Translations under genes and position numbers: made by a program
In this document: piece by piece, positions 5,889 to 10,237 of the stretch
Layout of the letters: each line of letters begins with the position of its first letter
Numbering within the stretch: position 1 is the first letter of the stretch
The notes under the pieces: model-generated
What the model saw: the letters and a program-made list of their open reading frames with translations, nothing else
The model's database searches: none
What the model was told of the DNA's origin: nothing
From: a virus
Length of the DNA: 64,000 nucleotides
Strand: one strand, 5' to 3'
IMG/VR virus record: IMGVR_UViG_3300024346_000008
Location: 1 to 64,000 of that record

Positions 5889-5953
5889 TTGACAAACGAC
5901 CTACACTAGTGTATATTACAAGAGTAGTGAAGAACGACACGTTATTTGACAAC
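5889..5953 (+). promoter_or_regulatory. sigma70-type promoter plus boxA-like element of the main tRNA operon
   Basis: TTGACA-17-TATATT; GTTATTTGACAAC at 5941-5953. Confidence 0.75.
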
Positions 5954-6098: not shown

Positions 6099-6701
6099 AT
6101 GTCAAAACTAGGTGGATATAGAGAAGGTTCGGGAAGAAGTAAATCGGGATATTATAACGGTATTTACTGCGGGTCTACTTATGAACTATGTTGGGTGATA
6201 TACGCACTTGACACTCAAGTAAAATTTGATAGATTTAAAGGAATCTTACGAGGTAATAATATATCATATGTTCCTGACTTTCTCTTGAAGGATGGCAAAA
6301 CAATAATAGAATTAAAAGGATATGAATCACAAGATAGAGTTAATGAAAAAACAAAATTGGCAGAAAGTCTTGGATATACCGTGGTTGTCTTACGAAAAGA
6401 CGATTTAAAAGATGTGTTTGCGTATGTTGCTAATAAATTTGGAACTAAAAAGTTTCATACGTTATATGATGGTTATAAACCAAAATATACTTACACTTGT
6501 TCAAATTGTGGTAACTCATTGACCAGAGACAATCAGTTAAAATCAACCAATGTGTTTTGTTCAAGAGTTTGCGCAGGCCTAGGCAATAGACCGCACACGA
6601 TTTTGTCTAAGCAAAAAGTATTAGATAGGGCAAAAAGATTCTACGAAAAAAATAAAGAATTAATTAATAAAAAACGTAGAGAAAAATATAATAGTAAATA
6701 A
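6099..6701 (+). CDS. PD-(D/E)XK endonuclease (TnsA-like) with C-terminal Zn finger
   Basis: S.YE, YVPDF, IIELKG; CSNC...FCSRVC. Confidence 0.8.
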   Translation: MSKLGGYREGSGRSKSGYYNGIYCGSTYELCWVIYALDTQVKFDRFKGILRGNNISYVPDFLLKDGKTIIELKGYESQDRVNEKTKLAESLGYTVVVLRKDDLKDVFAYVANKFGTKKFHTLYDGYKPKYTYTCSNCGNSLTRDNQLKSTNVFCSRVCAGLGNRPHTILSKQKVLDRAKRFYEKNKELINKKRREKYNSK

Positions 6702-6704
6702 TAT

Positions 6705-6776
6705 GGCGCGTTCTTCTAGCGGCTAGGAAGCTTGACTTTCACTCAAGTAAGACGGGTTCGATTCCCGTACGCGCTA
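6705..6776 (+). tRNA. tRNA-Glu(TTC)
   Basis: cloverleaf; cttga-CT TTC AC-tcaag. Confidence 0.9.
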
Positions 6777-6968
6777 CTTATCCCGTCCGTTTCTATATGT
6801 GGTAGACGTTAAACAAAAACATATTCGGTACATGAACTCCGACAATATTCATGAGTGGTTCGCACCAGCTTAGTGGTGGTAAGGGTTGGGAAAAATATTG
6901 AATAGCTAACAATATTTGGGGAACCTACTAGATACTGTGGAAAGTATCTGACAATCCCCACCCACTAT

Positions 6969-7040
6969 TGGCCTATCGTATAACGGTTATTACTCTTGGC
7001 TTTGAACCAAGTAATCGGGGTTCGATTCCCTGTAGGCCTA
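6969..7040 (+). tRNA. tRNA-Gln(TTG)
   Basis: cttgg-CT TTG AA-ccaag. Confidence 0.9.
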
Positions 7041-7097
7041 TTGTAGTACGGACGCTCTACCGATTAGAGTATGATTAATTTTTCTTTGGGTATACAC

Positions 7098-7253
7098 ATG
7101 AAAGTTTTTATGGTTTTCGCAGTGATGGCAATGACAGCATGTTCCAGTGCAAAGACTGAGACGGTTGCTGATACCTCGGCAACTACCACGGTTGATAGTG
7201 CCGGAGTTATTAATGTTACAACTGATTCGGTTCGCACCGATTCCGTCAAGTAA
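7098..7253 (+). CDS. small lipoprotein
   Basis: signal peptide with lipobox MTAC; T/D/S-rich tail. Confidence 0.7.
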   Translation: MKVFMVFAVMAMTACSSAKTETVADTSATTTVDSAGVINVTTDSVRTDSVK

Positions 7254-7254
7254 A

Positions 7255-7366
7255 GCATTTCTGATGAGGCTTTAATAGCCGTAATGTTGGAGGCGGTTTG
7301 CGCGTGAGCGGTCACAAACTGTCAGACTTTGGTCGGCCGGTCGCTCGGCTATCCAACATAAAATGC
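7255..7366 (+). ncRNA. type I hammerhead ribozyme variant (GUAA in place of GAAA) with structured insert in stem III
   Basis: GCATTT-CTGATGA-GGCT/AGCC-GTA-ATGTTGGA...TCCAACAT-A-AAATGC. Confidence 0.7.
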
Positions 7367-7458
7367 AGTAATTAAATTTTACGAGGAGTTGGTCAGTCCC
7401 TCGGTGAAAGAGATCGCAACTCTAAAGACATGATCGATCACCATGTCACTGACTGTAC

Positions 7459-7528
7459 GCGGTTTTGGTGTAACAGTAGCACGGTCGGCGTCCAGCTGAA
7501 CAGTCCGGTGCAAATCCGTGAAACCGCT
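7459..7528 (+). tRNA. atypical tRNA-Gly(TCC)
   Basis: GCGGTTT/AAACCGC acceptor with U73; loop CG TCC AG; degenerate D and T arms. Confidence 0.55.
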
Positions 7529-7532
7529 CTTT

Positions 7533-7605
7533 GGGTCTTAGGTGTAAATGGGTGCACGTCTGCTTTGCAAGCAGAAGGTAATCGGTTCGATACCGATAAG
7601 ATCCA
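7533..7605 (+). tRNA. tRNA-Ala(TGC)
   Basis: G3.U70; tctgc-TT TGC AA-gcaga. Confidence 0.9.
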
Positions 7606-7621
7606 CTTGACAAAATTAATT

Positions 7622-7712
7622 GGGCGAGGTAACGTGCAGAAAGACGTTTCTGTGGGAGTCACCACACGGTAGCCCCGTGTTTAGGAAGCCGGTTCGAATC
7701 CGGCCTCGTCCA
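7622..7712 (+). ncRNA. tRNA-like RNA with Ala acceptor and branched anticodon arm
   Basis: GGGCGAG/CTCGTCC-A, perfect T arm, two hairpins instead of an anticodon loop. Confidence 0.65.
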
Positions 7713-7713
7713 C

Positions 7714-7869
7714 TTGACAAATAATGTTTGATAGGTTATATTAAAAGAGTACGATACTGACGCGGGGTAGAGAAGCAGTAACTCATTTGGCTCATAACCA
7801 AAAGATCGTGGGTGCAATTCCCACCTCCGCCATAAGATACTTGACAAATGAAGGTCACTAGGTTATATT
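7714..7869 (+). promoter_or_regulatory. two internal sigma70-type promoters (7714, 7841)
   Basis: TTGACA-17-TATATT twice, each followed by AAAAGA. Confidence 0.8.
7761..7832 (+). tRNA. tRNA-Met(CAT), initiator-like
   Basis: CGCGGGG start, C1.C72 mismatch, CT CAT AA. Confidence 0.85.
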
Positions 7870-7879
7870 AAAAGAATAC

Positions 7880-7962
7880 GCTCCTATGGTGAAATCGGTA
7901 AACACAAGAGACTTAAAATCTCTCGCTCGAAAGGCTTGTCGGTTCGATTCCGACTGGGAGCA
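7880..7962 (+). tRNA. tRNA-Leu(TAA)
   Basis: long variable arm; CT TAA AA. Confidence 0.9.
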
Positions 7963-7968
7963 CTTAAT

Positions 7969-8040
7969 GCACTGCAAGCATTAATGGTGATGCAGGAGGC
8001 TTTTAACCTTCAGAACACGGATCGTTACCGTGGCGGTGCA
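7969..8040 (+). tRNA. tRNA-Lys(TTT), atypical T loop
   Basis: ggagg-CT TTT AA-ccttc; T loop ATCGTTA. Confidence 0.8.
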
Positions 8041-8111
8041 CTGATTATATGTAAACCAGTTGTTTGACATTCTTCTACTCTACGTATATACGTACACAAA
8101 AGGAGAATTAT

Positions 8112-10108: not shown

Positions 10109-10237
10109 TTATTAGATGTGTGTGACTAATGGGCATTCACTTGTATGTCGAAGAGGACAACGATACTAAGCAAGATAGTAAACCGCAGACCTCACAAGTA
10201 CAGAAAATCTTGTCAATTTTCTGCGTACATCTAATAA
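10109..10237 (+). ncRNA. putative structured ncRNA
   Basis: 14-bp closing stem plus internal helices. Confidence 0.55.

Follow-up and report, generated by a model that had tools for sequence, protein, structure and literature searches.

The window analysed here comprises the first 64 kb of a 163,934-bp record of an uncultured virus (IMG/VR record IMGVR_UViG_3300024346_000008) and carries, at 7255-7366 of its plus strand, a hammerhead ribozyme motif with three stems in exact register and an open stem I (type I). Position 13 of its core is a U (U7282), which gives GUAA instead of GAAA. In the hammerhead core, A13 is regarded as invariant. Comparison of the locus among related phages shows that the non-A position 13 is a fixed trait of a conserved lineage and not a recent accident, a natural lineage having persisted without A13 through 10-20% sequence divergence with every helix and the rest of the core kept. 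The reading that we favour, with about even confidence, is that of a genuine type I hammerhead belonging to a locus-specific lineage of uncultured lake-type phages and most likely still able to cleave itself.

Architecture and family membership of the element

Stem I is formed by six Watson-Crick pairs between GCAUUU (7255-7260), which is invariant in the eight alleles described below, and AAAUGC (7361-7366), the predicted 5' end of the downstream product. It is preceded by an A (7254) that is invariant in the phage hammerhead family and in all eight alleles. The core segment C3-U4-G5-A6-U7-G8-A9 (CUGAUGA, 7261-7267), in which N7 alone varies among alleles (U or C), leads into the stem II hairpin (7268-7280), where GGCU (7268-7271) pairs with AGCC (7277-7280) around the loop UUAAU; this stem II sequence is shared with many canonical family members. 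G12-U13-A14 occupy 7281-7283, U7282 standing at the site of A in every canonical member listed. Stem III pairs AUGUUGGA (7284-7291, A15.1 to 15.8) with UCCAACAU (7352-7359, 16.8 to U16.1) over eight Watson-Crick pairs and is closed by a peripheral 60-nt insert (7292-7351) of three hairpins: hairpin 1 with a GUGA loop, hairpin 2 with GAC/GUC and hairpin 3 with GGCCGG/UCGGCU. H17 is A7360 (A in 8/8 alleles), and both it and the A15.1-U16.1 pair (A7284-U7359) are invariant in the eight alleles.

Direct reading of the letters and the fold bears out the hammerhead in exact register that the original prediction had described, including the three-hairpin insert in stem III and the start of the element 1 nt past a lipoprotein stop codon (TAA, 7251-7253). 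The predicted scissile bond likewise falls, from the register of the three stems, at 7360/7361, as had been proposed. An alternative register (G12, a bulged U, A13, A14, a U15.1-A16.1 pair and a cut after 7359) was considered and rejected: it needs three deviations, among them a bulge in stem I, and the 3' strands of the sister alleles agree with the register that has a single change at position 13, which is therefore preferred.

Folded by minimum free energy, the 112 nt adopt the three-way junction of a hammerhead (-40.7 kcal/mol, z -2.67). A descriptor scan of both strands of the whole 163,934-bp genome, with one mismatch allowed in GAA, found 7255-7366 as its single site, and none of 300 Markov-random genomes of the same composition contained a site with stems of at least 6, 4 and 8 pairs.

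Phage hammerheads are known to flank genes and to cut polycistronic RNAs (PMC3088659). Scanning IMG/VR with a pattern of CUGAUGA, the window's stem II and GNAA returned at least 120 loci. Among the matches listed, position 13 is A in 123 sites, most of which fold as a type I hammerhead with a 6-bp stem I; two further matches of the same scan, with C or U at 13, do not fold and are chance hits. A typical listed member lies just past a stop codon, 10-30 nt ahead of a start codon, and the 123-site set is the intergenic phage hammerhead of Perreault et al. 2011 (PMC3088659). In an alignment of 63 members, whose helices show strong covariation, 23 columns are invariant; the window retains 22 of them, the exception being A13, and those retained include the family-specific A before and after the 6-bp stem I and the U..A pattern of loop II. 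Our own covariance model, built from 31 members, has one match in the 64-kb window, at 7255-7366 (28.1 bits, E 2.5e-5). This alignment is shortened because the model cannot span the insert; canonical members with a long stem III, such as L004, also align only partly, and an insert-free sister allele (allele F) aligns over its full length with 46.9 bits, within the range of fully aligned canonical members. As judged by these sequence comparisons, the identity of the element as a hammerhead by descent is established.

The window element resembles the type I hammerheads of phages and prophages (PMC3088659; Rfam clan CL00010) in its open 6-bp stem I and CUGAUGA core, in its 4-bp stem II with a 5-nt U...A loop, its A15.1-U16.1 pair and its non-G at position 17, and in its place between cistrons just past a stop codon, with invariant flanking A's. 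It differs from them in having U at position 13 (C or A+U in sister alleles) and not A; in its 76-nt stem III, the longest among the matches listed, where lengths otherwise run from 12 to 58 nt; and in its site within a tRNA array, a setting found for one of the 123 sites among the matches listed, in which a structured leader and a tRNA come next, not a ribosome-binding site and a gene. An observation on a different locus concerns stem III as well: at L015:1828-1868 (minus), together with the next ~50 nt, a canonical hammerhead has a 56-nt stem III in which part of the sequence resembles a tRNA T-arm (GCGGGUGCAAAUCCCGC), with an acceptor-like closing helix.

No Rfam hammerhead family reached its gathering score in the window or in the surroundings of the site, nor did RF00163 over the whole genome. 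This negative carries no weight for the window element, since the Rfam hammerhead models gave no gathering-score match in 11 loci with canonical members either; the best scores on the canonical locus L024 were 25.8 bits for RF00008 and 24.6 bits for RF03152 (loci L002-L121). RAGATH-1 (RF03152) is the only Rfam model of the same topology that partly aligns canonical members, but its score on L024 is far below its gathering score of 56.3 bits, and the window element gave no match to it at E up to 10. Whether or not the window element cuts, the Rfam hammerhead models miss even canonical members of a large phage family.

Position 13 in related phages

Independent assemblies of the same phage were located by exact-protein look-ups. 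The identical 112 nt, including GUAA, are present in contigs of ERZ27246748, ERZ534233, ERZ767106 (partial), ERZ767053 and ERZ27246505; since these are five other samples built with different assemblers, U13 is not an assembly error. The GUAA deviation on which the original prediction was built is therefore real, and the ordinary GAAA that resequencing might have returned was not seen at the level of assemblies.

Position 13 in homologs, to which the same prediction had pointed as informative, reads U, C or A+U across eight alleles (the window's included) at the same locus in related phages, represented in ~20 assemblies. Six of the alleles were added through a relaxed pattern scan and through look-ups with lipoprotein homologs, and the adjacent coding sequences are 80-100% identical in nucleotides to the window's. 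Between G12 and A14, U is read (GUAA) in allele A (the window), allele B (L260, L265), allele E (L284), the insert-free allele F (L285, L286) and allele G (L288); C is read (GCAA) in allele C (L269, L278, L279, L283, L287); and A-U is read (GAUAA), together with C at N7, in allele D (L280) and allele H (L289, L290). Alleles D and H also have a C15.2-G16.2 pair, as is usual in the family. The GAUAA and GCAA forms among the closest relatives, as well as the conserved RNA past the cut site, had been overlooked in the original prediction.

Further searches outlined how far the lineage extends. The relaxed pattern had nine matches in IMG/VR, among which L269 was the only homolog. A 25-nt string from hairpin 1 had no match in IMG/VR, the stem III junction pattern had 28 matches there, none of them a hammerhead, and bacterial and archaeal genomes gave no match when scanned with exact and degenerate patterns of the element. 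Syntenic relatives retrieved from IMG/VR and JGI metagenomes through a 200-aa nuclease (36-74% identity) do not carry the hammerhead. For 6600-8100 no cultured-phage match beyond tRNAs was found by blastn; for the neighbouring AAA protein, the closest match in a cultured phage is that of Microcystis phage Mel-JY01 (52% identity).

In the eight-allele alignment 99.6% of cells are paired, compared with 25-50% in slid controls, and the one cell left unpaired stems from a shift of the alignment in allele F. Five pairs are changed on both sides, one in stem II and four in stem III, and the hammerhead junction is the minimum-energy structure in 8/8 alleles. Pair 7269/7279 of stem II is G-C in five alleles and U-A in three. 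This change from G-C to U-A is found among the pyrimidine-13 alleles themselves, as is a distal stem III pair that is A-U, G.U or G-C; since several compensations thus lie between alleles with a pyrimidine at 13 on either side, selection acted on the fold after the loss of A13. The closest comparison is provided by contig L260, with which L265 from another project agrees: over ~2.8 kb it is identical to the window save for two patches, and one of these is the hammerhead. Within this patch U-A replaces G-C at the 7269/7279 pair, the distal stem III pair is now G.U and GUAA is kept, while hairpin 1, shorter by 14 nt, now has a UACG loop and hairpin 2 is 16 nt longer. For three substitutions placed at random in 7255-7291, the probability of no damage to the core or to any pair is about 0.011, and that of a two-sided compensation in addition is about 0.002.

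The unpaired core is conserved as well. Of the 25 hammerhead columns that are unpaired, only 3 vary, namely N7 and both columns of position 13, compared with 59 of 156 columns of the adjacent coding sequence (Fisher p 0.012), and C3, U4, G5, A6, A9, G12, A14, H17 and loop II are invariant across the alleles. N7 is free in all hammerheads. These comparisons show purifying selection on the fold and on the unpaired core. Among the three readings that the original prediction had offered, the natural core variant is favoured by such comparative data (a pyrimidine at 13 in six alleles, compensation in stems II and III), and the inactive relic, understood as a recent decaying copy, is disfavoured by the compensations and the conserved core.

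The natural core variants listed as active include U13a, in which GAAA contains an additional U that was argued to be able to bulge from the core (PMC3088659). The sister alleles D and H, reading GAUAA, have the form of this variant (PMC3088659, Figures 5 and S6); the window differs from it in reading GUAA without A13, which would fit with loss of the A and retention of the additional U. No report of a GUAA or GCAA hammerhead core was found in a limited literature collection. The simplest history would lead from GAAA to GAUAA, from there to GUAA by loss of A13, and to GCAA by a transition; we infer this order without an outgroup, and the reverse, in which insertion of an A repaired GUAA, takes equally many steps. 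Recombination adds to this picture. L280:624-945 is a mosaic in which the lipoprotein coding sequence equals the window's, the 5' half of the hammerhead (CUGACGA, GAUAA, ACAUUGGG) matches that of allele H, the most distant one, and the insert matches that of allele C, which points to frequent exchange at the locus.

Predicted cleavage and competing explanations

Self-cleavage would occur after A7360, probably more slowly than in canonical members, and would sever the lipoprotein mRNA from a precursor made up of a conserved leader and a tRNA, with the whole ribozyme staying on the 3' end of the lipoprotein mRNA. The 3' end of that mRNA would then be compact and highly structured and would carry a 2',3'-cyclic phosphate. 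The leader-tRNA precursor would be released with a 5'-OH, its 5' end lying 6 nt ahead of the conserved leader, and an RNase P cut at the 5' end of the tRNA would then free an RNA of ~98 nt. The cutting itself, its rate and its purpose are what we infer from the sequences. Mutations of A13 inhibit 10-100 fold, less than mutations of G12 or A14 (PMC4075628), and since this cost is not above 100 fold, a fast natural hammerhead could still cut within an infection.

Several points weigh against continued cleavage, or against the strength of the case for it. Selection normally acts against a pyrimidine at 13, since A13 is present in all canonical members listed and, when IMG/VR was scanned specifically for sites combining C, G or U at 13 with a stem II of the form GGC...GCC, none of the 87 matches was a convincing hammerhead. 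The predicted folds of the U and C alleles pair G8 with Y13 and U7 with A14. The active hammerhead has a C3-G8 pair (e.g. PDB 2GOZ), with which the predicted G8-Y13 pair would compete. Stem I is invariant and therefore lacks covariation support, and the number of independent changes in the other stems is uncertain because the alleles recombine. Finally, in a context of 221 nt the hammerhead-competent fold lies 3.5 kcal/mol above the minimum and makes up 0.8% of the ensemble.

The strongest of the competing explanations, which we regard as possible but doubtful, is that the element descends from a hammerhead and no longer cuts usefully, its junction being kept as a structural element, for instance as a 3' exonuclease barrier or processing signal on the lipoprotein mRNA end or as a protein-binding site. 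Such reuse would fit with the pyrimidine at 13, never seen in the canonical members listed, and with the cost of A13 mutations given above (PMC4075628). The predicted G8-Y13 and U7-A14 pairs extend stem II, a U to C change at 13 strengthens the G8 pair, and the hairpins are capped by the stable tetraloops GUGA, UACG and UUCG. However, a purely structural role leaves the invariant core bases, H17 and loop II unexplained, and, just as in active hammerheads, N7 is the sole core base that varies freely. Moreover, GAUAA, which is reported to be active, alternates with GUAA at the locus, and does so in a phage with exactly the lipoprotein coding sequence of the window.

Rather unlikely, in our view, is the opposite possibility that the Y13 hammerheads are fully functional with a rearranged core, GAUAA, GUAA and GCAA forming a natural rheostat that tunes the severing of lipoprotein mRNA from leader and tRNA. 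The Y13-G8 pair might then be a resting state that must open for catalysis, and the locus would be a hot spot of recombination at which the alleles are swapped between phages that are otherwise almost the same where compared.

Decay finds still less support. According to this explanation the hammerhead has become dispensable, A13U has cost it its function and the element drifts; it might draw on the relative L122, which lacks the element, and on the absence here of a gene with a ribosome-binding site after the hammerhead, unlike in most family members. Covariation makes it strongly disfavoured and, to us, improbable: all stem pairs are intact in eight alleles whose adjacent coding sequences range over 80-100% identity, with the five two-sided compensations, the unpaired core varies less than the coding sequence beside it, and the element is present in about 20 assemblies.

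A regulated ribozyme had also been put forward in the original prediction; in the form considered here, with the insert or a competing extended helix acting as an allosteric sensor that switches cleavage, we regard it as very improbable. A competing fold is present in the 221-nt context, and the 3' strand of stem I can also pair inside the downstream leader. Competing secondary structure was nevertheless rejected as a sign of either decay or regulation, because the hammerhead share of the ensemble among the canonical members listed has a median of 4% and is at or below 1% in 26% of them, so that the window's 0.8% is within the canonical range and does not discriminate. The insert itself gives regulation no support either. 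In relatives, indels affect the tips of hairpins 1 and 2, hairpin 3 being invariant; the 14-nt and 16-nt indels separate strains otherwise identical over about 2.8 kb; and in allele F (L285) a plain 9-bp hairpin replaces the insert altogether. The insert gave no sign of a tRNA-like cloverleaf, with neither a tRNA match at E up to 10 nor an ARAGORN call over 7100-7550, it has no Rfam family match, and neither insert nor leader has a second copy in the genome or in the retrieved loci. The stability of the insert alone is not significant against shuffles (z -1.62; 13 of 200 shuffles fold as well), and its hairpins are backed instead by where the indels fall. The insert is, on this comparative evidence, a variable, dispensable peripheral domain. 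An artefact, whether a motif arisen by chance or a wrong base at 7282 through sequencing or assembly, has only the rarity of U13 in its favour and can practically be dismissed given the 0/300 random genomes with such a site, the 22 of 23 family-invariant positions retained and the same base called in five other samples with different assemblers.

If the GUAA and GCAA forms cut, as in the reading of a still self-cleaving hammerhead, the accepted core consensus and the descriptors used for finding hammerheads would be too narrow, and GAUAA, GUAA and GCAA would constitute a ready natural mutant set for the role of position 13. If they do not cut, the locus would illustrate clearly how the fold of a ribozyme can be retained for a task other than catalysis. 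In both cases the element would set the 5' limit of an RNA of ~98 nt, conserved and unstudied, that lies ahead of a phage tRNA, and it is an exchange hot spot between strains identical over the rest of the ~2.8 kb compared.

Lipoprotein gene, leader RNA and tRNA array

Some 20 tRNA genes, all on the plus strand and interspersed with small open reading frames, extend from about 1.1 to 12.8 kb of the window. Directly upstream of the hammerhead lies a small lipoprotein gene (7098-7253, plus strand) of 51 aa with an ATG at 7098 and the lipobox MTAC. Its product has syntenic homologs with 76-100% identity in 11 protein clusters and a weak syntenic homolog in L122, where the hammerhead is absent and a tRNA-Gly lies 16 nt past the lipoprotein stop. 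In its own lineage the hammerhead is always found 1 nt past this stop, and the order in all relatives is tRNA-Glu, tRNA-Gln, tRNA-Met in some, the lipoprotein gene, the hammerhead, a conserved stretch of 92 nt and tRNA-Ala.

The 92-nt stretch is the leader RNA (7367-7458, plus strand), which ends in ACUGACUGUAC and is 81-92% identical among alleles. Its consensus fold has two covarying pairs in a hairpin at 7427-7447; its single-sequence fold is not significant (z -0.56), and 7367-7458 has no Rfam match. The leader end abuts the first base of tRNA-Ala in L284 and L285. In the window and in allele H (L289, L290) a degenerate tRNA-Gly-like stretch (7460-7531, plus strand) stands between leader and tRNA-Ala. 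This stretch is absent in alleles C, E, F and G; it is 80% identical to the tRNA-Gly(UCC) of L122 and has a compensatory change in the acceptor stem (GCGGUUU/AAACCGC versus GCGGUUC/GAACCGC); at 7460-7531 it was called as a tRNA by neither ARAGORN nor Rfam. The first called tRNA downstream of the hammerhead is tRNA-Ala(UGC) at 7533-7606 (plus strand).

The nearest upstream promoter-like site, TTGACA-17-TATATT at 5889-5917 (plus strand), is a consensus match only and could be the start of the hammerhead transcript. The same arrangement recurs on the plus strand within the tRNA array at 7714-7742 and 7841-7869, and the sites bracket the unit. Theta ribozymes are reportedly located 3' of tRNAs, where they are said to trim trailers. 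The window element is comparable to these HDV-like ribozymes by phage tRNAs (Kienbeck et al. 2024, PMC10879173) in belonging to a class of small self-cleaving ribozymes and in lying in a phage tRNA cluster, where it would apparently define an RNA end beside a tRNA. It differs in ribozyme class and in that the hammerhead would set the 5' end of a leader preceding a tRNA; hammerheads are not mentioned in the theta-ribozyme paper (PMC10879173).

The second patch in which L260 differs from the window also lies in the tRNA array. At window 10131-10225, compared with L260:2940-3056, the interior of a stem-closed spacer between tRNA-Pro and tRNA-Ser is swapped for unrelated sequence, and the closing stem is kept, a G>A change at 10225 making a G.U pair A-U. 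The contig L263 (sample ERZ767088) matches the window at 99.7% from 8218 on, and its first 266 nt are unrelated and joined inside an HNH gene, which reflects either a strain rearrangement or a low-coverage chimera. In the tRNA array of a relative, L289:1123-1198 was called by ARAGORN as a tRNA of undetermined identity with a two-base anticodon.
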